Assembly: GCA_964420145.1 (NCBI GenBank)
Contig: CAYQRB010000002.1
Location: 4,056 to 68,055, forward strand
Direction: 5' to 3'
Source: an uncultured Candidatus Saccharibacteria bacterium
Lineage (GTDB): Bacteria > Patescibacteriota > Dojkabacteria > B142 > OLB20
DNA: 64,000 nt
Shown: positions 9,306-63,421 of the stretch, piece by piece
How the letters are laid out: every line of letters starts with the position of its first letter
How positions within the stretch are numbered: the stretch's first letter is position 1
Made by a program: the position numbers and the translations under genes
Notes under the pieces: model-generated
What the model saw: the letters and a program-made list of their open reading frames with translations, nothing else
The model's database searches: none
Told to the model about the DNA's origin: nothing

Positions 9306-10409
9306 ATGCAAGAAATAAAAGAAAAAATAAAACTACAAGGAGAACGGATTTCAGATATTCAGAAGAAAAAAGATAGATCAGAAATTACTACAGAATTAGA
9401 AAATACAAAGCTTCTTGCTAATGACCAGTCTTTATGGGCTGATCAAGCTAATGCACAAAAGATTATGAAGAAAATAAGTGATCTCGGTGATGAGTTGGAT
9501 ATGTTAGATAGTATAGAAACGAAACTTACAGATATAGAAGTAATGGTAGAGTTACTAGAAGATAAAAGTACTGCTTCGAGTGGGCAAGATATTGAGGTAA
9601 TGAAAGAAATTAATTCTATGGTTAGCGAACTCGATAATATACTCAATAAAATAGAGATTACCACATTTTTAGGAGGAAAATTCGATCAAAGCGATGCGAT
9701 TCTCTCTATCCATGCAGGTCAAGGTGGTACAGAAGCAAATGATTGGAGTGAAATGCTAATGCGAATGTATCTTAAATATTTTCAAAAGCAGGGTTTTGAG
9801 AGTGAGATTACTAATATGATAAGAGGGAATGAAGCAGGGATTAATACAGTAACTATGGAAATCAAGGGACGGTTTGCTTACGGCTATTTAAAAAAGGAAT
9901 ATGGAACACATCGGCTTGTAAGAGTCTCCCCTTTTAATGCACAGGGTCTTAGGCAAACATCGTTTGCTTTGGTTGAAGTGATGCCTATTATAGAAAACGA
10001 TATTGATGTAAACCTAAATATGGACGAGATTGAATTTAGTGCAGTAAGATCTTCGGGTGCAGGAGGACAGAATGTAAATAAAGTGGCTACTGCTGTAAGG
10101 CTAGTACACATACCTACTGGTATTACCGTTTCTTGTTCTACAGAAAGAAGTCAATTACGCAACAAAGAATTTGCTTTGAATATGCTTAAAGGGAAGCTCT
10201 ACAATCTTGAACTAGAAAAGCAAGAAAAAGAACAGAAAGACTTAAAAGGAGAGCACAAAATTGCCGGCTGGGGTAATCAAATTCGCAACTATGTGCTACA
10301 CCCATACAAATTAGTAAAAGATTTGCGTACTGATGTAGAAAGTCAAAATCCTGAAGCTGTTTTGGATGGAAACCTTGAAGAATTTATAGAAGCCGAAATC
10401 CGTCTATAA
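9306..10409 (+). CDS. prfB: Peptide chain release factor 2, encoded without a programmed +1 frameshift
   Basis: SPF tripeptide (VRVSPFNAQG) and the GGQ motif (RSSGAGGQNVNK) are present. A single uninterrupted 367-aa ORF. Confidence 0.9.
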   Translation: MQEIKEKIKLQGERISDIQKKKDRSEITTELENTKLLANDQSLWADQANAQKIMKKISDLGDELDMLDSIETKLTDIEVMVELLEDKSTASSGQDIEVMKEINSMVSELDNILNKIEITTFLGGKFDQSDAILSIHAGQGGTEANDWSEMLMRMYLKYFQKQGFESEITNMIRGNEAGINTVTMEIKGRFAYGYLKKEYGTHRLVRVSPFNAQGLRQTSFALVEVMPIIENDIDVNLNMDEIEFSAVRSSGAGGQNVNKVATAVRLVHIPTGITVSCSTERSQLRNKEFALNMLKGKLYNLELEKQEKEQKDLKGEHKIAGWGNQIRNYVLHPYKLVKDLRTDVESQNPEAVLDGNLEEFIEAEIRL

Positions 10410-13699: not shown

Positions 13700-15832
13700 T
13701 TAGAGAGTAGCTTTTTTCCCTGAAAGTTTCTCGTAAATATCACGCATTTCTGCTGCAAGTTCAAACTCCATCATATCAGCATAGACCAGCATTTGGGTAC
13801 GAATATCTTCTAGTAGTCTTTGTTGTTCGTTTTTCTTGATGATATTGTAGCTTTCGGCTCTTTTTAGGATGTCTAAATCCGCTTTAGGTAAAGTTTTCTC
13901 TGTCTTTGTTTTACCAACCAGTTGGGTACGGATTTCTTTTGTGATTGTTTTAGGAGTTATATGATGTTTAATATTATATTTATTTTGAATTTCTCTCCTA
14001 CGGAATGTTTCAGTTATTGCCTGATCCATACTTTCGGTAACTTTTTGTGCATACATTATAACTCTACCCTCACTATGTCTAGCAGCTCTCCCTATGATTT
14101 GAATTAAACTCGATGAAGTTCGTAGAAAGCCCTCTTTATCAGCATCGAGAATTGCTACCAAGGAAACTTCTGGTAAATCCAGACCCTCTCTTAAAAGATT
14201 GACGCCGACTAACACATCATATTTCCCAAGCCTGAGGTTTTTTAGGATTTCTACTCTCTCTAATGCATCTACATCTGAATGTATATATTGTACAGAGATT
14301 TTAATGTCTCTTAGATAATCAGTAAGGTCCTCAGCCATTTTTTTTGTGAGGGTAGTTATCAACACTCTTTGTTTTTTATTTATTGTATCTTGTATTTCGA
14401 TTAGTAAATCATCTACTTGATTCTTGGGGGAATAGTTTTTTTCTAGAATAGACATATTTGGATATTTCCGATTTTTTATGCTTTTAATTAGTTTCTCTTT
14501 ATGTTCTATGAGATCAGGACGCAGATCTATTCGAGGATCCAAGAGTCCTGTGGGCCGTATTAGTTGTTCTACAAAACCACGGTAAGAACTGGGCATATTT
14601 TTAGGTTTTATAGTGTTTACACTTTGCTTGCTTTTTTCTAGTTCAAAGTTACGAGGTGTTGCAGAAACATATATTGCCTGGTTGATTCTTTTGTAGAATT
14701 CCTCAATCTTTAAGGGACGGTTATCGAGTGCAGCTTTAAGCCTAAATCCGTACTCTACTAAAACTTCTTTGCGTGAGCGATCCCCATTATACATACCCTG
14801 TACTTGTGGTAGTGTCATATGTGACTCATCTATAAAAAGTAACCAATCATCAGGGAAATAGTCTAATAGAGTTGATGGAGGGGAACCAGCTGATCTTTTA
14901 TCGATATACCTCGAATAGTTTTCGATCCCAGAACAATAGCCTATTTGCTCAAGCATCTCTATATCGTAATTAACCCTTTCGTTTAATCTTTGTGCTTCAA
15001 CTATTTTCCTCTTTTTCTTAAAATCTGCTACTTCTTTTTTTAGATCATCTTTTATATTCGGAATTACTTGCTTTAAAGATTCAAAAGGGGTTACAAAATG
15101 TTTTGCGGGATATATCTTAAATTCTGATAGTTTTTTAATTACCTCTCCTGAGAGTGGGTTGATAAGTTTCAAAGATTCTATTATATCTCCAAAATATTCC
15201 ATCCTCAGTGCATAATCTCCAGAAGCTAAATAAACATCAATAACATCTCCTCTTATCCTGTAGAGGCCAGAGTAAAAATCATATTCACTTCGTTCGTATT
15301 GCATATCATTTAGTTGAGTTAAAAGCTTTGATCGCTTATAAGACATACCTGTTTTAATATCTCTACTTAGTGCAAAGTAGTCATCAGGGTTTCCTAACCC
15401 ATAAATACATGAAACTGAAGCGACTATAATTGTTGGGTGGTTACTTAGTAGAGATTGTGTTTCAGAATTCCGATTTCTCTCTATAAATTCATTAAGCGTT
15501 GATTCTTTTTATATATACTAGTCTCGTCTTGTGATATAGGCTTCTGGTTGATAATAGTCATAGTAAGAGACAAAATATTCTACTGCAGTCTCGGGAAAAT
15601 ATTCCCTAAATTCTGAATATAATTGGGCAGCTAATGTTTTATTGTGTGCAAGGACAAGAGTAGGTTTTTGTATATTGGCTATAATATTAGCCATAGTAAA
15701 AGTTTTCCCAGAGCCGGTAACTCCTATTAGTGTTTGATGTTCCAAACCGTTTTTAATACCTGCGCTTAAAATATCTATAGCTTGTTGTTGATCTCCTGCT
15801 GGTTTGTATTGACTTTTTAAGTGGTATTTCAT
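13700..15832 (-). pseudogene. uvrB: Excinuclease ABC subunit B (uvrB) interrupted by two in-frame stops (TAG at 15518-15520, TAA at 15509-15511); otherwise full-length and collinear
   Basis: N-piece (15518..15832) reads [19 protein letters not shown]...[10 protein letters not shown]...[12 protein letters not shown]. In the same frame it continues *YI*KESTLNEFIERNR...IIVASVSCIYGLGNPDDY...RGDVIDVY... (13700..15346). This aligns residue-for-residue with the UvrB block DT[FY]IEKDASINE: TAG sits on the Thr position and TAA on the Glu. Confidence 0.8.
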
Positions 15833-25949: not shown

Positions 25950-27212
25950 TTATTTTATCTTTTTGACTATAGATGTGATTTCGCCATCTTTTACTACTAG
26001 GTTTATTTGGTCACCTAGCGAAACTTTACTAATAGAACTTATTATATCTCCATTATTCTTTTTTATAATAGCATATCCTCGTTGAATAACATTTTTAGGA
26101 TTTAGAGAATTAAATAAGTGTTCATAATAAGATATTTCTTTTAACGAGTTTTTAATATATTGATCGAACCTGTCTAGTATAGAGGAAGTAGTAGCTACTC
26201 TGTGTTTATAATTATTTAGATAATTTATAATTTCAGTTTTGAAACTAAAACCATAATTATGAAAAATTGTATTTTGTTGATTTAAAATAGAAAGGATCTT
26301 GTCGTACAGGTTGTCTATATAGATTTCTTTCGTAGTAAGTGTAATTTGTTGTTTTATCAAATTATAGATTTGGTCCGTCTGTGTCGTGATAGCGGTAATA
26401 ACAGAGGTGGTATTAGAGATGAAGTAGTAGGCGGCCTGTGAGGGTGTAGATGCTCTTATATCTGCAGATAACTCAGCTATTGTGATATCCTTTTCGTGAC
26501 CTATTGCAACCATAGTTGTAGATTTGCTAGCAAAAATTGCTCTTGCCACTTTTTCATCATTAAAGGCGCTCAAGTCTTCTAAGCTCCCTCCTCCTCTAGT
26601 GAGCACAATGCAATCGTAATCAAATGTCTGTGCTGATTTAAGTGCGAAAACAACTTCTTTCACAGCCTGTTTTCCTTGTACTGCGACTGGGTATAGATCA
26701 ATATCTAAACAATTTGAATTTTCTTGAAGTATTTTGAGAAAGTCGGTTGAGGCTGCAGAACCTTTGGCTGTGATTAGTGCTATTTTGGTAACTAACCGTG
26801 GAAGCGGTCTTTTTCTCTAAACATCAAAGAGACCTTCTTTCTCTAGTTTGTTTTTTAAAATTTCAAGAGCTTTTGAAATAGCACCATCTCCAAGTGGTAG
26901 TATCTTATAGATTGAAATACTAAATTTACCGTAAGGAGAATATATTTGGGGCCGACCCCAAACAGCTACTTCTATTCCTTGCTCGATCATATTTAGTCCT
27001 TCGATTCTTGGTGCATATCCGCTAATACTCACTATTGCATTTTCCTGTTTATCTTTTAATACAATGTTAACCCCTTGTCCCTTGGATATTGAAAATTCTG
27101 TTACTTCTCCTTCTACTACTACTTCTCCGATAGTTTGTATTTGTAAGTTTACCAGGTCATTAAGTTGTTTAACTCCTAGTCTAAGGGTGGTGTTTGAATT
27201 AGATATATTCAT
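25950..27212 (-). pseudogene. xseA: Exodeoxyribonuclease VII large subunit (xseA) interrupted by a single in-frame TAG (26817-26819); otherwise full-length
   Basis: N-piece carries the OB fold (...VWGRPQIYSPYGKFSISIYKILPLGDGAISKALEILKNKLEKEGLFDV). In the same frame, after TAG, it continues RKRPLPRLVTKIALITAKGSAASTDFLKILQ...YPVAVQGKQA...LTRGGGSLEDLSAFNDEKVARAIF...GHEKDITIAELSADIRASTPS. This is collinear with E. coli XseA ([13 protein letters not shown]...). Confidence 0.8.
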
Positions 27213-34206: not shown

Positions 34207-35973
34207 TTATTCAACTAACACTCCGTTTGATTGCAATTCCCACAAGTATCTATAAATTCCTCCTTTTCTTTTAATCAGCTCTTCATGACTTCCTTCTTCT
34301 ATTATCCTTCCTTGTTCAAAAACAAGTATTCTATCAACTTTTTCTATGGTAGATAGGCGATGAGCAATAATAATCGTAGTTCTGTTTTTACTCAAACTCC
34401 AGAGTGCTTTTTGTATTTGTTTTTCAGATATGGAATCAAGATTACTTGTAGCCTCATCAAATATGATTATAGGGGTATCTGCCATAAATGCTCTGGCAAT
34501 CGCTAATCTTTGTTTCTGACCTCCTGAGAGTTTTATACCTCTCTCTCCTACCTGTGTATTATATTTCTCTGGTAATGTATTGATGAAGTCATAAAGATAT
34601 GCATTTTGAGAAGCAGTTATTAACTCATGGGGTTCGTATTTATCTGCTTTGGAATACCCAATATTGAATCCGATAGTATTATTAAAAAGCACAGCTTCTT
34701 GAGGAACCATTGATATTAGCTCACGAAGATCTTTTTTAGGGAAGTTTTTGATGTTGATACCATTGATAAGGATTTCTCCAGAAGTGGGGTCATAAAACCG
34801 CATAAGTAGTTTTATAAGTGTCGTTTTCCCTACTCCTGAGCTGCCAACTAGTGCAATGGATTCTCCCTGTTGTATTTCTAAGTTTAAACCCTCAAATACA
34901 CTATGGTTTTCATCATAACCAAACGATACATTATTGAAAGTTATTTTTAAGCCTGAAGTAGAGTTTTGTATCGTTTCCTGGTCTTGAGGGGAAAGTTTTT
35001 TGACTTTATCAATCACTACTATTTTTTCATCAAGTAATCCTAGATACGCTTTTAAGTCATTGAAGTTCTTAGCAACTTCTCTGAACTGAAAAACAAGATT
35101 TCGTATTTTTGGATAAAAAGTACTAGCAAAAGTTATTGCCATAACAAATTCTCCGGGGTTTATATATCCTTTGTTAAGATCATTAACTGCGAAAAGAATA
35201 GTGATTAGAAGGCCGATATTCACTAGACCCCCATTTACTAAATCGATCACCCTGAAAGTTTTCGTGTAGTTTATAAAACTTTCTTCCCAAATTTTAACTT
35301 TTTTCCCTAAACGAATTTGTTCGTATCTTTCTTGTGCAAAATACTTAACATTTTCAAATGCAATCATATTGTCTACTATTAACGCATTCACATCATCATC
35401 ACAATCATTAAAGGTTCTTCGTTTTCTTACATTGTGTTTAACTGTAAAATACATTGCAAAGACATTAATGAAGAAAACTATAACCGTGATGGTTATTAAC
35501 CGTGGATATATTGTTGAATAGATTATAATCAAAAAAATAAAATCAAGAATAATTCTTACTGCCCATATGTTAAGCTCGTCAAAAAAACTAATGAATGCTC
35601 CCTCCCCTCTTTTGAAAAGGCTAATTAGTTTACCTGATGATTTCTGAATATGATAATGAAAGTCTAAGTCATGAAGATGTTTGAAAATATCTGTTTTCAA
35701 TTTAGCAGATGTCCTGACTATAGTAATATCAGAAACATACATTGTAATGGTATCACCTAGGTAGGTAACCACAGTAACTACACAGATTAATAGTAGGGAG
35801 TTAAAGAGTTTTTCATTGTCTCCTTCAAGGGATGCGTTGACACCATTTCGAAGAAAAAGAGGCAAGAGGTTAGAAAGCAATGCCATTAGGGTGTTTAGCA
35901 GGATTGCAGATAAATAGAAATACTTAAATTTCCAAACATAAGAATAGAAGCGTTTAATGTACTTTATATCCAT
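34207..35973 (-). CDS. ABC transporter permease/ATPase (exporter, MsbA-like)
   Basis: Six N-terminal TM helices, then Walker A (GSSGVGKTT), the ABC signature LSGGQKQRLAIARAF and Walker B (IIIFDEATS). Confidence 0.85.
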   Translation of the reverse strand: MDIKYIKRFYSYVWKFKYFYLSAILLNTLMALLSNLLPLFLRNGVNASLEGDNEKLFNSLLLICVVTVVTYLGDTITMYVSDITIVRTSAKLKTDIFKHLHDLDFHYHIQKSSGKLISLFKRGEGAFISFFDELNIWAVRIILDFIFLIIIYSTIYPRLITITVIVFFINVFAMYFTVKHNVRKRRTFNDCDDDVNALIVDNMIAFENVKYFAQERYEQIRLGKKVKIWEESFINYTKTFRVIDLVNGGLVNIGLLITILFAVNDLNKGYINPGEFVMAITFASTFYPKIRNLVFQFREVAKNFNDLKAYLGLLDEKIVVIDKVKKLSPQDQETIQNSTSGLKITFNNVSFGYDENHSVFEGLNLEIQQGESIALVGSSGVGKTTLIKLLMRFYDPTSGEILINGINIKNFPKKDLRELISMVPQEAVLFNNTIGFNIGYSKADKYEPHELITASQNAYLYDFINTLPEKYNTQVGERGIKLSGGQKQRLAIARAFMADTPIIIFDEATSNLDSISEKQIQKALWSLSKNRTTIIIAHRLSTIEKVDRILVFEQGRIIEEGSHEELIKRKGGIYRYLWELQSNGVLVE

Positions 35974-42525: not shown

Positions 42526-43983
42526 CTATTTAATCAAATACTCATAAATATCTCTTTGTGGTAGCGTGGCTCCAGCTATTTCTTTGCCATAGATAATAAC
42601 CTTAGAAGCGTTAAGACCTAATCCTCCATACGGAAGAAACCCCCTTTCGGTTTTATGAAGATCTGTGTTATAGATAATACTTTCGTGTGTATGTAGACCC
42701 TTAGTAACTAAAGTTTTTATATATTCTGATTCTCCGAAAACTGTTACATACATAGCATTGGGTCTATATTGTGGGTTTTCAAAATATGTTGATAAGTCCG
42801 TATCGTCTTTGTATGGTTGGATCATAATAATTGGGGCAAAGTATTCTTTAAGAGCAGGGCCCAAAGATAGTGGTTTTATGAATACTGTCGGGTAAATCAT
42901 ATTCTTGCGAATATTAATATCTCCTCCGTAGATACAAAACTCTTTGTCTTTGTCTAAGATAGTAAGGGTTGGTAGTAATGCATCGGGATTACTATTTGGG
43001 CCGACAATTGTTTTCTTATCTTTATACTCTCCAACCAAAGGTTCAATTTCTTTTAGTTTTTTTAATAGTGCTGTTTTATATTTAGGCAAAACAGATTCTT
43101 GGACAAGGATAGAATTAGGGGCTGCACAATCTTGTCCTTGATTTTGGAGAGTTACTCTTAGTGTACTCTCAACAGCATTTTGTATATTAGCTGTGTTGGT
43201 AACAACAATAGGGTTATGACCAGCTCCGTTCAATATAAATAATTTTGGCTTGTATTGTTGATAAACCCTTTTTCCATTTATAGGATTCCCAGTAAAGATA
43301 ACAACATCAACGGCTGGTTGAGTTAATTTGTAGTATGAAGGTCGATCTCCCATAAAAACATTTAAATTTGGGAAAAACTTATCTAATTTCAATACCTCTT
43401 TTAACTTTGAAAAATGTACTTGGACGATCTCCGGGGGTCTAACATATGTACTTTCCGACATAAATGATGGGACGATACCAAAGCAAACCAGTGCATATAG
43501 TGGTTGGTTCAGTGGTAGAAATGTTACTATTTTATTTACTTTTTTCTTAAAATATTCCTTGTTTTGATCTAAATTATTTAAATGATCAATAGATCTATCT
43601 ATTTCATCCAGAATGACATTATATGTTTCAAAATTTTCTAAAGCTTTGACAATTTCTTTCTTATTAACTTTAAGATGTTTTGCAAATGTTTGTGCTGTAA
43701 GAAATACTTTGTTGAAATTAATTGGTAGTTGGGATCCTTGATCTAATTGATTTACTCTAAAGTCCACAGATACTTCTTGTCTAATCAAATCTGCGAATTT
43801 AGGTATTTCGGATCTTTCGATATGCTTAACGACTAAAGTTTCGAACTCATCTTCATATACTAGATTTGATATCCTTTTTCCTAAGTAGTTTTGAATATTA
43901 TCTTTTGTAGAATCTTGAAGACCAGAAAAATTAATGATATATAAATTTCTGCCACGATATACAAGTTTACCCGGAGTGATCAT
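42526..43983 (-). CDS. Divergent aldehyde dehydrogenase superfamily protein (ALDH/LuxC-like acyl-CoA reductase)
   Basis: FTGNP..., ILNGAGHNPIVV (ELGG-like), the catalytic Cys context NQGQDCAAPNSILVQES and C-terminal PYGGLGLNASK. 485 aa. Confidence 0.6.
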   Translation of the reverse strand: MITPGKLVYRGRNLYIINFSGLQDSTKDNIQNYLGKRISNLVYEDEFETLVVKHIERSEIPKFADLIRQEVSVDFRVNQLDQGSQLPINFNKVFLTAQTFAKHLKVNKKEIVKALENFETYNVILDEIDRSIDHLNNLDQNKEYFKKKVNKIVTFLPLNQPLYALVCFGIVPSFMSESTYVRPPEIVQVHFSKLKEVLKLDKFFPNLNVFMGDRPSYYKLTQPAVDVVIFTGNPINGKRVYQQYKPKLFILNGAGHNPIVVTNTANIQNAVESTLRVTLQNQGQDCAAPNSILVQESVLPKYKTALLKKLKEIEPLVGEYKDKKTIVGPNSNPDALLPTLTILDKDKEFCIYGGDINIRKNMIYPTVFIKPLSLGPALKEYFAPIIMIQPYKDDTDLSTYFENPQYRPNAMYVTVFGESEYIKTLVTKGLHTHESIIYNTDLHKTERGFLPYGGLGLNASKVIIYGKEIAGATLPQRDIYEYLIK

Positions 43984-44008
43984 TTGAATTATAACTGAAG
44001 ATATAAAA

Positions 44009-44087
44009 TGGTGGGCCCTCTAGGACTCGAACCTAGATACATCAGATAAAGAATCTGTTACTTTCCCTATTTTTAAGCTAAAGACCC
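44009..44087 (-). tRNA. Atypical tRNA, apparent anticodon CUU (Lys); possibly degenerate
   Basis: Reverse complement GGGTCTT-TA-GCTT-(11-nt D-loop)-AAGT-A-ACAGA-TTCTTTA-TCTGA-TGTAT-CTAGG-TTCGAGT-CCTAG-AGGGCCC-A-CCA. The T-arm is perfect. The acceptor has two G·U pairs, the anticodon stem an A·A mismatch, and position 37 is U. Confidence 0.5.
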
Positions 44088-44223
44088 ACTTAATTCTGAA
44101 GGTAAGGGTATGCTACGATATAATCTATTGTTTAGTCAAGAGTAAAATTATATTTTAATCGTTGGTTGTGGTTGTTATTTATCGCAATCTACATTAAAAT
44201 TAACCATCTTTCAAAAACTCACT

Positions 44224-46191
44224 ATGGCACAATCATTTGATCTTATAGGACAAAGAAATATTCGTATTGAAAAAGCTAATAAGCTTAGGAAAATCGGAAT
44301 TAACCCCTACCCTTCTGTTTCCAGAAGAAATACAAGTACGCAAGAAGCTAGGGCTAGTTTTGAGGATAATGATGGAAAAAGCGTGGTAGTTGCAGGGAGA
44401 TTAATGTCTTGGAGGGAGCATGGTGGAGTAGTTTTTGGAAATGTTCAAGACCAAAGTGGATCTATCCAGCTATACATAAAGTCTGAAGTAATAGAAAAAA
44501 CGAACCCCAAAAAAGGAAATATAGGTTTTGAAGACCTACATCTCTTAGATATTGGTGATATTGTAGAGGCTGTGGGATCTGTTACTAAAACCCAAAAAGG
44601 GGAGATTTCTATTTTGGTATATGAACTACGACTTTTAACTAAGTCGATTAGGCCTCTACCCGACAAACGGAAAGGTTTACAGGATAAAGAGAAAATCTAC
44701 CGCCAAAGATATCTGGATATGATTATGAATCCTGATAAAAGATGGAGGTTTGTTAAAACAGCAGAGATTGTTTTTGCCATTAGAGAGTTTTTAAATAGTA
44801 AAGGTTTTTTAGAAATCAAAACACCAATCATTCAGCCATCTTACGGGGGTACACTTGCAAAACCTTTTCAAACACATGTAAATGCATTAAATACTGATTA
44901 TTATCTTGCTATTTCTCACGAACTGTACTTAAAAAGGCTTATCACTGCTGGTTTCGAAAATGTTTATAACATAACTGGGTATTTTAGAAATGAAGGAATT
45001 GATCGTACTCATAATCCAGAGTTCCAAATGGTTGAAACTATGACTGCTTTCAAAAACTATGAGTATAATATGGATTTAATTGAAGATTTATACAAGTATG
45101 TAGCTACCAAGGTTTTCAATAAAACAGAATTTGAGATAGCAGGACATTCTATAGACTTTAGTAAAGATTGGCCCAGGATTAAAATGATAGATGCTGTTAA
45201 AACATATGCCAGACACGATTTTAATAAGATTCAAACTATAGCAGAAGCACACAAGATACTCTCCCTAGAAGGGATAAACTCAAAACCAAAAACGATTTCA
45301 GAGTCAATGGTAGAGATTTTTAAGGAAAAAGTTGAAAGTAAGTTAATAGAGCCGACCTTTATTTATGGTCATCCAGTGGAAATTTCTCCATTAGCCAAAC
45401 GAATGGATTCTGACTCTCGGTTTGTAGAACGATTTGAGATTTTTATTGGAGGAATAGAAGGAGGAGATAACTGGACTGAGTTAAATGATCCAGTAGAGTT
45501 ATTTGCTAGGTTCAAAGATCAATTTGACCGTAGAGATAATGGAGATGAAGAAGCCCACCCAATGGATATTGACTTCTTAGAAACTATGGAATACGGAATG
45601 CCTCCAACAACCGGTCTAGGGCCAGGCATTGAAAGGTTGGCTATGATGCTTACTGATACAGAATACATAGATGATGTATTGTTTTTCCCTATGATGCGTC
45701 CTGCACAAATTACAAAGTCTCAGACGGAAATATATGGGGAAAAATATGTACAAGGTTCAACCAAAAGCTCGAAGCAAGATTTTAGTAAAAAGATGGTGAT
45801 TGTAGTAAATAAAGAAGTTAAAGGCTGGCAGTTAACCAACACCATTGCTCATATCTCAGCATATTTAGGCAATAAAATCCCACAAGCTCAATTTCAGTCC
45901 AGGGATAAGTTTATTCTCAAAGACGGAGAAATTAACTCCAACTCCCAATATGGGATTGTTACTCTAACCGCAGGACCCGCTCAACTCAAAAACTTGCTAG
46001 AAAGGATAGAAGAAACAGGGCTTCCTCATCTGGTTTTTGTAGATGAAATGATAGAGATGGGTAACGACGATGAACTCAGTGATAACCTATCACAAAAAGC
46101 TAAATCAGAACTGAATTATCTAGGAATTGGAGTGTTTGGAAATGTTGATGAAGTTGAGAAACTTACAAAAAAATTTAGCCTGTACAAATAA
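44224..46191 (+). CDS. lysS: Lysine-tRNA ligase (class II) with a roughly 160-aa C-terminal extension
   Basis: N-terminal OB anticodon-binding domain, class II motifs (...FRNEGIDRTHNPEFQMVE...GLGPGIERLAMMLTDT...FPMMRP), then an extra KKMVIVVNKEVKGWQLTNTIAHISAYLG... domain. Confidence 0.9.
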   Translation: MAQSFDLIGQRNIRIEKANKLRKIGINPYPSVSRRNTSTQEARASFEDNDGKSVVVAGRLMSWREHGGVVFGNVQDQSGSIQLYIKSEVIEKTNPKKGNIGFEDLHLLDIGDIVEAVGSVTKTQKGEISILVYELRLLTKSIRPLPDKRKGLQDKEKIYRQRYLDMIMNPDKRWRFVKTAEIVFAIREFLNSKGFLEIKTPIIQPSYGGTLAKPFQTHVNALNTDYYLAISHELYLKRLITAGFENVYNITGYFRNEGIDRTHNPEFQMVETMTAFKNYEYNMDLIEDLYKYVATKVFNKTEFEIAGHSIDFSKDWPRIKMIDAVKTYARHDFNKIQTIAEAHKILSLEGINSKPKTISESMVEIFKEKVESKLIEPTFIYGHPVEISPLAKRMDSDSRFVERFEIFIGGIEGGDNWTELNDPVELFARFKDQFDRRDNGDEEAHPMDIDFLETMEYGMPPTTGLGPGIERLAMMLTDTEYIDDVLFFPMMRPAQITKSQTEIYGEKYVQGSTKSSKQDFSKKMVIVVNKEVKGWQLTNTIAHISAYLGNKIPQAQFQSRDKFILKDGEINSNSQYGIVTLTAGPAQLKNLLERIEETGLPHLVFVDEMIEMGNDDELSDNLSQKAKSELNYLGIGVFGNVDEVEKLTKKFSLYK

Positions 46192-46303
46192 ACTTATACA
46201 AGTAAATGTCCTATCAATACGGTTTATAGTAATAACTCTTGTGGCGAGTATTGATCAAAAAATGGTCATTTATTTATATGATGAGATTGGGCAGTTTTAG
46301 TTA

Positions 46304-47462: not shown

Positions 47463-50033
47463 TTAGGATTCATTTTTTCCTACCTTTAGTTTTTCTATTT
47501 CTTCAGCCAGCATTTGCATATATAGAGTATATCCAATTTGCTTGATATTCCCGTGTTGCTGTTTACCTAAAAGGTTTCCTGCTCCTCGTATTTCGAGATC
47601 TCTAGAGGCAAGCTTAAAGCCTGCCCCGAACTCATTGATTTCTTTCATTGCCTGTAGTCTTCGTTTGTATTTCCTTCTTTCACGAAATTTCTTGATAGAA
47701 TCGGCATCAGTCGTCTGTAATTCAGGCATTATTTCTGTCTTGTCTATATCCTCCCCATCATAAAAAAAGTATGCAAACGCCTGTTTGTCACTTCTGCCCA
47801 CTCTTCCTCTGAGTTGATACATTTGGCCTAAGCCAAAGTTTTGTGCGTGTTCGATTATGATGGTGTTTACATTTGGCATATCTATACCATTTTCAATAAT
47901 CGTGGTACAGACAAGGATATCATATAATTTATCATAAAAGTCAGATACATTTTTCTTTAAAGTTTGTGGAAGCATTTGACCGTGTGCATATATTATCCTA
48001 GCTTTGGGTACAAGCCTTTTTAGTCTAGTGACTGTTGATTGAATAGTTTTGATTTTATTGTGTAGATAGTAAACCTGCCCTCCTCTAGCTAACTCATACT
48101 CTAGTGCCTCTTTAATTTTATCATTACTGATTTTAGTTACTATATTTTTCACAATTTTTCTGCCCTGGGGAGGTGTTTGTATTATAGAAATATCTTGTAT
48201 ACTAGAAAGTGCCATAGATAAACTTCTAGGGATTGGTGTCGCAGACATAGAAAGTACATGAACTCCGATTTCTAGTTGTTTTAGTTTCTCTTTTTGTTTA
48301 ACTCCAAATTTTTGCTCTTCATCAATTACTATAAGTCCTAGTTTTTTGAATTTAATATCACTAGAGAGCAGTCGATGTGTCCCTATTACTATGTCTATTT
48401 TGCCCTGTGCGATTTTTTCTATGGTATTTTTTTCACTACCCAAACTTATTCTAGAAAGTGAAGCAACTTTGATGTTAAACGGAGAGAACCTGTCTATAAA
48501 GACTTTTTCGTGTTGTGCGGTTAAAACGGTTGTCGGACAAAGTACGGCAACTTGATATCCGTTTTCTACCATTTTGTAGGTTGCTCTCATTGCTATCTCT
48601 GTTTTACCATAACCTACATCCCCAACGATTATCCTGTTCATTGGACTATTTTTCCCTAAGTCTTTGAGAATATCTTTTTCTGTCTGTTTTTGATCTGTGG
48701 TTATTTCATAGGGGAAAGTATCAACAAAATCTTGATACTTTCCTGGGCTTAGGGTATCTATTGAGATAGTTTTTGCTAATTCCCTTTTTGCATAAAGTGC
48801 AATCAGTTCTTTTGCCATCTCGTATATAGATTCTTTGGTTTTGTTACGGATATTCTCCCAATCTGTCTTCCCAAGTCTTGTAATTTCAGGCTCTTGTTCA
48901 TCAACACTAATATATTTAGTTAGTTTGTCTATTTGTGTAAGTGGAACATATAACTCATCATCTTCTGCATACCCAATTAAGACATAATCTTCCCGTATAA
49001 TCTTTTTTATCTTTTCCCCTACTCCTGTACGGATTTCTTGTGTATATTGCTCTTGTGTAATACCTTTATATATCCCTACTCCGTGTTCCTCGTGAACAAT
49101 AAAATCTCCGATTTCTATTTCTCCTTCAAGATTTGCCAGAATTTTTCTAGCTCTCTCAGATGAGAGTTTCTTTGCTTCTGCACCTAAGAAAATCGTTCCA
49201 AACAGTTCTTTATCTGAGAGAATTAGTAATTTCAATATATTTGACTGAAACCCAGAGTCAATATAGTCACTTTTGGATAAATATTTTTGTAAATTATCAG
49301 GAAGTAAATCCTTATTCCTTGAAAAGATTCTGACATAATAGCCACTCTTTTCTTTTTCGTTAATTTCATGAGATAAGATATCGAGGCGATTATAAAAAAG
49401 AGTCGGATATTCAAAGTCAAATGATACTAATGATTTACTTGGAAATGAATCCAAACTATCTCCACCAAAGATTAGAATTGTATTTTGCGGTTCCAAATGA
49501 GGATTGGAAATAAATATTTGCTCTAATTGGGATTTAAAATCCAATTTAGAAATATCTCCTAGTAGAAAAAATTGAACCTCTCCCATAGAATTGCCATAAA
49601 TTTCGTCGTAGAGTACGGCTGATTCTATAGTTTCTCCAAAAAACGAGACTCTCACTGGATGATCTAATCCAGGAGGCCAAAATCTTAAAACATCACCTTT
49701 TATAGTAAAATCACAAATATCTTCTACCCTATTAGTTTTTTGATAACCATACTCAATAATTGATCGTATTAGCGAGGTTGCCTTTGTTTCCTTAAACATA
49801 ACGAGTAAAAGGCTATCTAGATATTTTCTTAAATCAGGACTATCACGGCGGAGAGAAATTATCCCTTTATCTAGGTCTTTAGATAACATAACAAGTAAAT
49901 CTTCATAAAGGGATGGGGTAATTCCATCTATTTCAAGTATTGGTAAGTATTTATCACTAAGAGATTTATCAGTTAGCCTTGTTAATAAATCTAAATACGC
50001 AGGGTGTTTTTTGATATATTTGGAAAATACCAT
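47463..50033 (-). CDS. mfd: Transcription-repair coupling factor Mfd, N-terminally short form
   Basis: UvrB-homology D1b (GDVLRFWPPG...VRVSFFGETIESA), RID-like DFIVHEEHGVGIYKGI and the RecG-like translocase motifs (GDVGYGKTEIAMRA...DEEQKFGV). 856 aa against about 1100-1150 typical. Confidence 0.85.
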   Translation of the reverse strand: MVFSKYIKKHPAYLDLLTRLTDKSLSDKYLPILEIDGITPSLYEDLLVMLSKDLDKGIISLRRDSPDLRKYLDSLLLVMFKETKATSLIRSIIEYGYQKTNRVEDICDFTIKGDVLRFWPPGLDHPVRVSFFGETIESAVLYDEIYGNSMGEVQFFLLGDISKLDFKSQLEQIFISNPHLEPQNTILIFGGDSLDSFPSKSLVSFDFEYPTLFYNRLDILSHEINEKEKSGYYVRIFSRNKDLLPDNLQKYLSKSDYIDSGFQSNILKLLILSDKELFGTIFLGAEAKKLSSERARKILANLEGEIEIGDFIVHEEHGVGIYKGITQEQYTQEIRTGVGEKIKKIIREDYVLIGYAEDDELYVPLTQIDKLTKYISVDEQEPEITRLGKTDWENIRNKTKESIYEMAKELIALYAKRELAKTISIDTLSPGKYQDFVDTFPYEITTDQKQTEKDILKDLGKNSPMNRIIVGDVGYGKTEIAMRATYKMVENGYQVAVLCPTTVLTAQHEKVFIDRFSPFNIKVASLSRISLGSEKNTIEKIAQGKIDIVIGTHRLLSSDIKFKKLGLIVIDEEQKFGVKQKEKLKQLEIGVHVLSMSATPIPRSLSMALSSIQDISIIQTPPQGRKIVKNIVTKISNDKIKEALEYELARGGQVYYLHNKIKTIQSTVTRLKRLVPKARIIYAHGQMLPQTLKKNVSDFYDKLYDILVCTTIIENGIDMPNVNTIIIEHAQNFGLGQMYQLRGRVGRSDKQAFAYFFYDGEDIDKTEIMPELQTTDADSIKKFRERRKYKRRLQAMKEINEFGAGFKLASRDLEIRGAGNLLGKQQHGNIKQIGYTLYMQMLAEEIEKLKVGKNES

Positions 50034-58062: not shown

Positions 58063-59604
58063 CTAATTAAGAATTTTGCGTAAATTCTCAAGGCTTTTTT
58101 TGTTTTTTATAACAGTACGAAGTTCCTCATCAGTTGCTTTTTTAACTCCTTCGATATTACCAAAAGCCTGTAAGAGACGCTTTTTAGAAACACTCCCAAT
58201 ACCTGGAATATCATCTAGAATTGAAGATGTTTGTCCATAGGAGCGGAGTTTCCGATGATAATTGATAGCAAACCGATGAGATTCATCTCTGATCCTTTGT
58301 ATTAAAAATAAGCCTTCAGAACCATATTGTAGTTTTTTCTGTGAAAAACCCAGCTCACCTTGATTATCTTTTATTGTAAAAATATCTTCATTTCTTTTTG
58401 CCAAACCGATGATTGCAATATCTATGTCTAAATTTAGTAAAACCCTATAGGCGGATCCAAGTTGACCTTTTCCACCATCTACAATAATGAGATCTGGTCT
58501 TACACTAAAACTAATATCATCTCTTTTATCTTTATGCAAAAATCTTCGTGCTAGAACTTCACTCATCATTGCAAAATCATCGGGGGTATCTTTTGTTTTA
58601 ATCTTGAACTTGCGATATAAGTTGTTTTGAGGGATTCCATCTACAAACACAACCATTGAAGCGACTGCATTTGTCCCTTGTATATTAGAAATATCAAAAC
58701 ACTCGATTTTAAAATCTTTTTTTAATTTCAAACCAAACTGTGGTAGTTTTGCAATTATTTGAGTTAATGCACGCTTAGATCTTTCTGTCTTCTGTTCTAA
58801 AAAAGAAGTTTCATCAGTTTCAACCGATTCCACCGTAACTCGTTGTTTAATATATTCAATATCTTTAATTTTATTTCTTATCCTTCCTGCATTTTCATAA
58901 TCAAGGTTTTTAGAATATTCTTCCATTTCAGCTCTTAGATTCACCATTATTTGTTGGTGGTCTTTTGTGAAAAAATCAATAATTCCTTTAATATTTTTAT
59001 AATAATTTTTTTTCGAGATGTAACCAGCACAGGGACCAGGACAGAGTCCAAGTTGGTAATACAGACATGGTTGTGGGTCGGATGACACTGTTTTTAGTTT
59101 TCCTGTCTTTGGGTCTTTTATTTCTTTGATGATGCGGTTACATGTCCTATATGGATATACTTTACGAAGCCTGGATAGTATATTTTTAACAGGCATAGTG
59201 TAATGATAAGGGCCAAGATAGATTGCGTTTTTCTTTTTTTTATTTCGAACTACTAGAGGACTTGGAAAGTCTTCACTTTTGTCTATCATTATCCATATAT
59301 AGTTTTTGTCATCTTTTAAATCACGATTATATTTAGGTCTATATTTTTTAATAAGGTTGGTTTCTAAGATAAAAGCTTCTAGCTCAGAATCGGTAACAAT
59401 ATGCTCTATTTGAAAAATATTCTCTACTAGTATGCGTAGATGAGGATCTCTTTGTTTTTTTATAAAATAGCTACTCACTCGTTTGTGTAGATTTTTAGCT
59501 TTTCCAACATAGATAACTTTACCTTTCTGGTCTTTGTATAGATAACAGCCAGGACTAACCGGGAGGTTTTGTAAAACTTTGGAAACAACTAGTGGTTCAA
59601 TCAC
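58063..59604 (-). CDS. uvrC: Excinuclease ABC subunit C
   Basis: N-terminal GIY-YIG (GCYLYKDQKGKVIYVGKAKNLHKRVSSYF), central UvrBC domain, C-terminal RNaseH-like and HhH (GIGSVSKKRLLQAFG). GTG start. Confidence 0.85.
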   Translation of the reverse strand: MIEPLVVSKVLQNLPVSPGCYLYKDQKGKVIYVGKAKNLHKRVSSYFIKKQRDPHLRILVENIFQIEHIVTDSELEAFILETNLIKKYRPKYNRDLKDDKNYIWIMIDKSEDFPSPLVVRNKKKKNAIYLGPYHYTMPVKNILSRLRKVYPYRTCNRIIKEIKDPKTGKLKTVSSDPQPCLYYQLGLCPGPCAGYISKKNYYKNIKGIIDFFTKDHQQIMVNLRAEMEEYSKNLDYENAGRIRNKIKDIEYIKQRVTVESVETDETSFLEQKTERSKRALTQIIAKLPQFGLKLKKDFKIECFDISNIQGTNAVASMVVFVDGIPQNNLYRKFKIKTKDTPDDFAMMSEVLARRFLHKDKRDDISFSVRPDLIIVDGGKGQLGSAYRVLLNLDIDIAIIGLAKRNEDIFTIKDNQGELGFSQKKLQYGSEGLFLIQRIRDESHRFAINYHRKLRSYGQTSSILDDIPGIGSVSKKRLLQAFGNIEGVKKATDEELRTVIKNKKSLENLRKILN

Positions 59605-61432: not shown

Positions 61433-63421
61433 ATGGACGATGCATATTTTGGAAATAAAAAGGTTTGTATAACTCAAAGGCGTTATCTTGGCTCTAAAAC
61501 CAGGCTACTTTCATTTATTGATAATATCATTGAGCAAGAAAAGATAGAGTTTGATTCTTTTGCTGATATCTTTGCTGGAACTGGAACTGTTGCTAATCAT
61601 TTCCATAATCGCTCAAAAATCATTGTTAATGACATTTTAGATTCAAACTCTCATATCTACTCTGCCTTTTTTGGTGAAGACGAAATCAGAGAACAAAAAT
61701 TAAAGGAAAGATTAAAATATTATAACGATATTGAAGTTAAGCAATATGACGAAAATTATTTTTCAAAAAACTTTTCAAATACCTACTTTGATGCAGAAAA
61801 TGCAAAAAGGATAGGAATTATTAGAGATGACATCGAAAAGTTATTTGAAGAAAGAATAATCACACATAGAGAGAAATCGTATCTACTCACATCACTTATA
61901 TACGCTCTTGATAGAATTGCCAATACAGTCGGGCATTATGATGCATACAGAAAAATTGATATTCCGAGCAAAAAATTATTTTTACTGCCTCTTGATATAA
62001 CAAACTCGCAGTTCACTGCTGAAATCTACAAAAATGATGCGAATGAATTGGTAAAGAAAATTAAAGCAGATGTTGTTTATATTGACCCACCATATAATTC
62101 ACGCCAATACTCTGATGCATATCATTTACTAGAAAACATAACTACTTGGAAAAAAGAAAAAGTTTTTGGTGTAGCCAAAAAAATTAACCGCTCTCATATT
62201 AAAAGTAAATACAATATGAAATCGGCTGGCGTTGCCTTTAGTGATTTGATAGACAACATTAGTGCAAAATATATCCTCGTGTCTTATAACGATATGGGGA
62301 CATCGGGCAACGCCCGATCACAATCACGAATAAGCGACCACGAAATTTTATCGGCACTAAAACGGCGAGGAGAAGTTCAGATTTATGAAACAGATTTTAA
62401 ACAATTTACCACTGGTAAATCAAACAAGGACGACTTAAAAGAACGCATATTTTTATGCAAAATAGATGTTGAGACAAAAGCAAATAGTAAAATAATTGCG
62501 TCAAAAAATAATCCTGTTCAAAGTGGTTTTGTTAAATCACCGCTTAATTACACTGGTGGAAAACATAAACTTTTGCCACAAATAACAAAATTGTTCCCGA
62601 ATGATATTAAAACTTTTTATGATGTATTCTCAGGCGGTGCAAATGTCGGTATAAATGCAACCGCACGAAATATAATCTGCATTGAAAAAAATCGCTATGT
62701 AGTAAATCTACTAAAACTCATTCAAAATGATAATTTTGAGAATTTGAACCAAAAAGTACTTGATATCATAGATGATTTTGGATTAAGCCAGAGTTATATC
62801 AAAGGCTACGACCATTATGGCGTTGATAGTTCGTCGGGATTAGGTCAATACAATAAAGAAGCTTTCTTAAAACTTCGCAATGAATTTAATAAAGAAAAAA
62901 CTAGAATTGATTTATTGCTAGTGCTTATTCTGTATTCTTTCAACAATCAGATTAGATTTAATTCAAAGGGCGATTTTAACTTGCCAGTTGGCAAACGAGA
63001 TTATAACGGCAGTTCAAGAAAGAATATCGCCGCCTTTAATCAAATATCAAACGAGAAAAAAATAGTATTCAAAAGTTGTGATTTCCGTGATGTTGAAAAA
63101 ATGTCATTAGTAAAAAACGATTTTATCTATCTTGACCCACCGTATCTGTTAGGTCTTGCTAGTTATAACGAAATGAGGGGCTGGACAGAAAAAGATGAAA
63201 AAGACTTATATGCATTACTTGCAAAGTTAGACAGAAAAGGCATTCGCTTTGCCTTGTCCAATGTCTTGGAACACAAAGGCAATGTTAATGAAATAATGAA
63301 AAATTGGGCAGAAAAATATAAATATAATGTTCATAAATTAGATTATCATTATAAAAACTCGAATTATCACTCCAGTGCAAAGAACAATAAGACAATAGAG
63401 GTACTTATTACAAATTACTGA
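61433..63421 (+). CDS. Fused tandem D12-class (Dam-like) N6-adenine DNA methyltransferase (two MTase domains, type IIS-style M subunit)
   Basis: Domain 1 has YLGSKTRLL, FAGTGTV and VVYIDPPYNSRQY. Domain 2 has NYTGGKHKLL, DVFSGGANV and FIYLDPPYLLGLASY. Two complete D12/DPPY modules, as in M.FokI/M.AlwI-type enzymes that methylate both strands of an asymmetric site. Confidence 0.85.
   Translation: MDDAYFGNKKVCITQRRYLGSKTRLLSFIDNIIEQEKIEFDSFADIFAGTGTVANHFHNRSKIIVNDILDSNSHIYSAFFGEDEIREQKLKERLKYYNDIEVKQYDENYFSKNFSNTYFDAENAKRIGIIRDDIEKLFEERIITHREKSYLLTSLIYALDRIANTVGHYDAYRKIDIPSKKLFLLPLDITNSQFTAEIYKNDANELVKKIKADVVYIDPPYNSRQYSDAYHLLENITTWKKEKVFGVAKKINRSHIKSKYNMKSAGVAFSDLIDNISAKYILVSYNDMGTSGNARSQSRISDHEILSALKRRGEVQIYETDFKQFTTGKSNKDDLKERIFLCKIDVETKANSKIIASKNNPVQSGFVKSPLNYTGGKHKLLPQITKLFPNDIKTFYDVFSGGANVGINATARNIICIEKNRYVVNLLKLIQNDNFENLNQKVLDIIDDFGLSQSYIKGYDHYGVDSSSGLGQYNKEAFLKLRNEFNKEKTRIDLLLVLILYSFNNQIRFNSKGDFNLPVGKRDYNGSSRKNIAAFNQISNEKKIVFKSCDFRDVEKMSLVKNDFIYLDPPYLLGLASYNEMRGWTEKDEKDLYALLAKLDRKGIRFALSNVLEHKGNVNEIMKNWAEKYKYNVHKLDYHYKNSNYHSSAKNNKTIEVLITNY

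Follow-up and report, generated by a model that had tools for sequence, protein, structure and literature searches.

The uvrB gene of this bacterium is interrupted by two in-frame stop codons in its deposited MAG, and these stops are probably a local error, of sequencing or of assembly, in the record rather than a property of the organism. They are most likely sequence error because they lie within an 84-nt patch of nine substitutions that is absent from seven near-identical assemblies. Recoding of the stops is excluded because TAA and TAG serve as ordinary terminators within the window (the whole 64,000-nt stretch of DNA that was analysed), and gradual decay is excluded because the rest of uvrB is unchanged. 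A second repair gene in the window, xseA, is also split by a stop that is found in this assembly only.

Identity and reading frame of uvrB

The uvrB described here is an ordinary UvrB gene, carried by a bacterium of the Candidatus Dojkabacteria (CPR). When the read-through product was used as a protein query, the matches were UvrB proteins of Candidatus Dojkabacteria (WS6, CPR), the top ones being full-length proteins of 710-714 aa with 98% and 95% identity, together with a 548-aa match at 100% identity that is the window's own record, from a single 68,254-nt NCBI contig. P0122, an intact allele of 710 aa from the same strain, gives 945 bits against the NCBIfam model NF003673 and 930 bits against TIGR00631, for which the UvrB equivalog cut-offs are 743 and 750, respectively. 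P0122 is in this respect a full-length member of the family, and the window gene has the DNA sequence of P0122 save for the nine patch substitutions. All the relatives share the arrangement dnaE-rsmA-tgt-uvrB, with a convergently oriented AI-2E transporter gene after it. The original prediction had placed uvrB in an operon with overlapping boundaries, and there is indeed an overlap of 11 nt between dnaE and rsmA, but this is the sole overlap in the cluster: uvrB starts 6 nt past the tgt stop and does not overlap tgt.

Translation of the minus strand from 15832 to 13700 gives one UvrB-like frame from end to end, containing exactly two internal stops with 6 nt between them (Table 1). Mechanical ORF calling divides this frame into 15518..15832 (104 aa) and 13700..15346 (548 aa), so that the earlier description of two ORFs in the same frame, parted by a TAG and a TAA six nucleotides from one another, is borne out. 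The same is true of the claim that the gene contains no indels, since its length matches that of the strain's intact orthologue (710 aa), with 0 indels between them. As deposited, uvrB does not provide the uninterrupted frame that a UvrB protein with its helicase motifs, beta-hairpin and C-terminal UVR domain would need, being cut at codons 105 and 108. The cuts fall in the stretch past the conserved YYQPEAY motif, and the next ATG, GTG or TTG is codon 163.

Other parts of the original description have to be modified. The stops were held to fall at conserved residues, which is correct for codon 105, where Leu is present in 104 of 116 homologues, but not for codon 108, which is variable in the same set (E in 76, A in 22, S in 15 and D in 3). 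Thr and Glu, as in an E. coli-type UvrB, had been expected at the two positions, whereas this species has Leu (TTG) and Ser (TCA). The statement that there are no other lesions in the gene needs some qualification, as the stops are surrounded by seven more private substitutions, four of which are missense.

Table 1. Positions within the window of the two interrupted genes, their premature stops and the uvrB patch.
Feature	Position	Strand	Description
uvrB (excinuclease ABC subunit B)	13700..15832	-	711 codons including terminator; two in-frame stops, both private to this assembly
Private-substitution patch	15449..15532	-	84 nt with nine window-private substitutions; differs from 7/7 loci
TAG, codon 105 of uvrB	15518..15520	-	TTG (Leu) in relatives; private T>A, coding strand, at 15519
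TAA, codon 108 of uvrB	15509..15511	-	TCA (Ser) in relatives; private C>A, coding strand, at 15510
xseA (exodeoxyribonuclease VII large subunit)	25950..27212	-	420 codons; split into ORFs 26817..27212 and 25950..26663
Private TAG in xseA	26817..26819	-	G>T transversion, coding strand, at 26819; GAG (Glu) in five fetched relatives

Private substitutions and the independent assemblies

Is it the organism that has changed, or the record of it? The material for an answer comes from Logan assemblies of many SRA runs, from which DNA was fetched around exact-match proteins to give 29 independently assembled loci, each with 99% identity or more to the window. Jointly these loci span all 64,000 nt, with 0 indels relative to the window, and the window differs from every covering locus at exactly 10 positions. 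Nine of these lie within 84 nt of uvrB (15449-15532), and the tenth, at 26819 in xseA, is the only private difference outside that patch. At each of the nine uvrB sites the window differs from 7 of 7 covering loci, and at 26819 from 10 of 10. The other base is thus carried by every locus that covers each site, and the differences are private to one assembly, as would be the case with a local error. A single Logan contig, SRR22101537_265977, reproduces window positions 3700-48509 except for the ten private sites.

Outside the patch, all 2,049 nt of uvrB agree exactly with the strain's intact allele. The relatives have an intact 710-aa UvrB with the sense codons TTG and TCA at the positions of the two stops, and those that are ~92-93% identical in DNA keep the ancestral bases at the nine sites, save for two transitions in one locus (L011). 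The alignment with the uvrB genes of close relatives that had been proposed as a check was run, and it shows all of them to be intact, with neither shared nor extra lesions of decay. For xseA the situation is similar, in that the gene is intact, at 420 aa, in the five fetched relatives; the read-through product of the window gene gives 313 bits against TIGR00237, where the cut-off is 180.

The fragment proteins tell the same story from the side of the databases. All four uvrB and xseA fragments are found on one NCBI contig only within a collection of 15 billion proteins, and the exact sequences of the intact neighbouring genes are present in NCBI plus Logan, on 6-10 contigs. Exact look-up of both uvrB fragment proteins in assembled contigs gave no second assembly with the stops, and a degenerate 40-nt pattern, in either its stop or its sense version, gave 0 matches in the GTDB species-representative genomes and JGI metagenome contigs. 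The exact look-up also missed the ORF at 34207-35973, but this reflects the later start (559 aa) chosen by gene callers and is not a lesion.

The loci also provide some information on the strain itself. Essentially one Dojkabacteria strain (loci L005-L033) recurs in separate assemblies of well over a dozen SRA runs belonging to several accession series, and several of these loci are at least 99.9% identical to the window, with most of the remaining differences being the ten private sites. Elsewhere in the window, the comparison of 43613-46217 with positions 14797-17402 of L012, a strain that is otherwise near-identical, shows an abrupt fall in identity from 99.7% to 92.3% over a lysyl-tRNA synthetase-like gene, the product of which is 655 aa here and 693 aa in L012, suggesting a segment that has recombined or that varies between strains.

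The substitutions in the uvrB patch, given from the 5' end of the gene with their positions in the window, are P101T (15532), L105stop (15519), I107I (15512), S108stop (15510), S111S (15500), V116F (15487), Y120N (15475), A124E (15462) and L128L (15449), which amounts to two nonsense, four missense and three synonymous changes. None of the four missense residues is ever seen at its column in 116 homologues: the ancestral P, Y and A are found in 105, 110 and 108 of the 116, respectively, and the fourth column is variable although F never occurs there. The changes look unselected because they comprise two nonsense codons, four residues that are not seen in homologues and three silent substitutions.

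All nine patch changes are transversions and eight of them are to A on the coding strand. With the xseA site included, the ten private differences are all transversions, which on the coding strand consist of four C>A, four T>A and two G>T; each is a change of purine to T on one strand or the other, and for eight of the nine in the patch that strand is the plus strand. Natural polymorphism among the same strains comprises 120 transitions to 26 transversions, and the contrast between the private differences (0 transitions to 10 transversions) and an earlier count of the natural ones (119 to 24) has a Fisher p of 9e-8. Through this excess of transversions, and through missense products that are unseen in homologues, the pattern is unlike natural variation, which again is a feature of local error. 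A contrast to the all-transversion patch in uvrB is provided by a transition-rich tract in mfd (48153-48528, minus strand), which differs from L012 and L014 at 38 positions in ~375 nt, mostly by transitions, and sits within an otherwise near-identical 15 kb; it looks like a natural tract of between-strain recombination.

The placement of the changes is equally skewed, given that uniform placement over 64 kb would put nine of the ten sites into an 84-nt interval with a probability of the order of 1e-21. The occurrence of stops is less surprising. In the AT-rich uvrB gene 11.4% of C>A, T>A and G>T changes create stops, and the stops need no special explanation because three among ten such changes has p ~0.10. 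The spacing of the patch sites is quasi-regular, with gaps of 13, 7, 2, 10, 13, 12, 13 and 13 (post hoc p ~0.005), and fits no specific explanation, whether the changes are read as artefact or as real mutation.

Origin of the stops

In the most likely sequence of events, some 84 bases of uvrB (15449-15532) would carry substitution errors at a density of roughly 10%, two of which would happen to convert TTG to TAG and TCA to TAA, and a lone further error at 26819 would convert GAG to TAG in xseA. The likeliest origin is a consensus derived from poorly supported sequence at the uvrB spot, for example from the poor-quality end of one short read that spans a local drop in coverage or from a local error of the assembler, either of which might be expected to give a density of ~10% with sharp edges. 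The organism itself would then have a normal 710-aa UvrB in the conserved dnaE-rsmA-tgt-uvrB cluster, in addition to uvrC and mfd. Against the error reading are (i) that assemblers normally want more than one read per path, (ii) that a long contig (68 kb) argues against very low coverage overall, and (iii) that both private events are nonsense changes in DNA-repair genes, which is somewhat unlikely for random errors. The rough joint chance of two random errors both being nonsense and both falling in repair genes, judged post hoc, is well below 5%.

The last of these points is shared with the reading in which the substitutions are real and very recent, having arisen in uvrB of the sampled population through a single clustered mutation event on one DNA strand, with a separate G>T nonsense change in xseA. 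One route would be error-prone synthesis across several successive apurinic sites or bulky purine adducts, in which adenine is placed opposite every lesion. The 'A-rule' describes such insertion of adenine opposite non-instructive (abasic) lesions, with SOS-type G:C>T:A and A:T>T:A transversions as the outcome, and the strand-coordinated spectrum of the patch, where eight of nine changes are purine to T on the plus strand, is what general knowledge of this rule predicts. The deposited sequence is, moreover, a consensus, and the two events would both be losses of function in DNA-repair genes (uvrB and xseA). The same purine-to-T spectrum is, however, equally expected from in-vitro copying of a damaged template or from base-calling bias, and none of the ten variants is present in any other assembly of the strain. 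There is also no other private substitution in 64 kb, so that the lineage would have diverged by about zero generations and yet have gained ten transversions, and bacteria show bursts of nine substitutions within 84 nt only extremely rarely. A real clustered event is considered unlikely. In its more specific form, where all ten transversions are real, one strand-coordinated shower (purine to T, about one per 10-13 nt over 84 nt) destroyed uvrB and xseA acquired its nonsense change independently, the proposal has a distinctly slim chance of being right.

A different kind of real change is that of an ordinary pseudogene, a uvrB that would have lost its function and be eroding as selection on it relaxed. 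The two nonsense changes and the four radical missense ones would be in keeping with this. Decay would not, though, be confined to 84 nt and leave the remaining 2,049 nt unchanged from the intact allele, nor is it suggested by a gene with 0 frameshifts that is intact in every relative; with the patch removed, the comparison with L001 gives 23 synonymous and 10 non-synonymous differences, which is to say mostly synonymous ones. The halves of the gene outside the patch, for which a comparison of dN/dS had been proposed, are identical to the intact allele and have zero private divergence to enter into such a ratio. Lesions spread along the gene, frameshifts and lesions shared with relatives are all absent from uvrB, and the pseudogene reading is very improbable.

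The least credible of the readings, and one to which hardly any probability attaches, is that the stops are decoded by reassignment, a suppressor tRNA or programmed readthrough to give a full-length UvrB. The frame is perfectly collinear across both stops, and some CPR lineages do use an altered code, with UGA read as Gly in Gracilibacteria and Absconditabacteria. Within the window, though, 38 of 50 intact ORFs have TAA as their terminator and 5 have TAG, and the only three in-frame stops in 64 kb are all private to this assembly. Neither codon recurs at conserved sense positions in the way that reassignment would produce. Identical strains have plain TTG, TCA and GAG at these places, so that three different amino acids would be needed, and recoding offers no account of the seven accompanying private substitutions. 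The six tRNAs of the window (Gly x2, Lys, Thr, Phe and Val) include no suppressor and no stop-reading anticodon. The only release factor gene in the window is prfB. This gene, for release factor 2 (9306-10409, plus strand), is a single uninterrupted ORF of 367 aa with 439 bits against TIGR00020, and is here without the programmed +1 frameshift site that is present in many bacteria. The original prediction had left open whether the stops reflect recent inactivation or are not real, through sequencing error or readthrough. Sequence error is favoured by stops that are private and lie in a patch of nine transversions, and readthrough finds no support in the ordinary TTG and TCA codons of the orthologues.

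Three further sources of the patch were considered and rejected. Templated mutation or gene conversion, for instance from the UvrB-like module of mfd, was addressed through a donor search in the window, which returned only chance matches of at most 14 nt. Adenine mutagenesis of the DGR type does not agree with nine sites that are invariant in relatives save for the two L011 transitions, or with a patch in which one change is G>T. Long-read errors at methylation motifs, suggested by an AlwI-type R-M system nearby, are not in accord with a patch that has no GATC and with 0 indels in 64 kb. The putative R-M region lies towards the end of the window, where 61433-63421 (plus strand) encodes a 662-aa protein with two matches to D12-class N6-adenine methyltransferases. 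In L024-L027 the gene for a 603-aa AlwI-family restriction endonuclease comes after that for the 662-aa methyltransferase, and the region from 61433-63421 onward appears to be a type IIS-like R-M system that runs off the window end.

Consequences and comparison with known systems

What then can be said of NER in this organism? Neither uvrC (58063-59604) nor mfd (47463-50033) is damaged in the window, in agreement with the original prediction that both are retained. The accompanying proposal that NER is crippled, should the stops be real, finds no support at the level of the organism, as every other assembly of the same strain or species has an intact UvrB that scores above the NCBIfam cut-offs. 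A normal UvrABC pathway is almost certainly present in the organism, and therefore no inference on NER loss in the Dojkabacteria can be drawn. The uvrB interruption is neither a new recoding event nor evidence for such a loss.

With error as the favoured reading, the interruption has little biological consequence and its value lies in the caution that it brings to public MAG records. In this public MAG two repair genes are split into four fragment proteins, which already form singleton clusters in protein databases, and these four spurious entries are traceable to ten bases. Errors of this kind can be exposed by independent assemblies of the same strain, without recourse to reads. If, on the other hand, the changes were real, the sampled population would truly be without NER and exonuclease VII, and the loss of repair genes would have been caught within about zero generations, in a population that is otherwise identical to strains from many samples. 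It would also represent a rare natural case of clustered translesion mutagenesis in an uncultured episymbiont, which would be modestly interesting.

The interruptions resemble several known phenomena to differing degrees. In common with the recent nonsense pseudogenes that affect repair genes in reduced or host-dependent bacteria, they are premature stops, here in uvrB and xseA of a small-genome CPR bacterium; they differ in having no shared or extra lesions or frameshifts, in the restriction of the uvrB changes to one patch and in the intactness of all conspecific assemblies. With CPR stop reassignment (genetic code 25, UGA=Gly) they share the presence of in-frame stops at sense positions of conserved genes, but the codons here are TAG and TAA rather than TGA, both regularly end genes across the window, and identical strains lack them at these sites. 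The substitution classes and strand coordination match those of translesion-synthesis clusters made under the 'A-rule', a comparison that draws on general knowledge, although in-vitro copying of damaged DNA gives the same signature.

The closest likeness is to local assembly errors in MAGs, which are described as frequent and as propagating wrong protein sequences, with 13 of them recorded in one 1.13-Mb CPR genome (Chen et al. 2020, Genome Res 30:315, PMC7111523). The pattern observed here, which is purely of substitutions, all of them transversions, and quasi-regular, does not seem to be among the error types specifically described in that paper, where the criterion for error is that no read perfectly supports the consensus; the likeness drawn here rests on the comparison of assemblies. 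In other respects the correspondence is close. As with the errors reported there, a short stretch of consensus departs from the population and corrupts a coding gene in the public record, the anomaly is private to one assembly, as local MAG errors are, and the rate is comparable, with 2 events per 64 kb here set beside the 13 per 1.13 Mb of the published genome.
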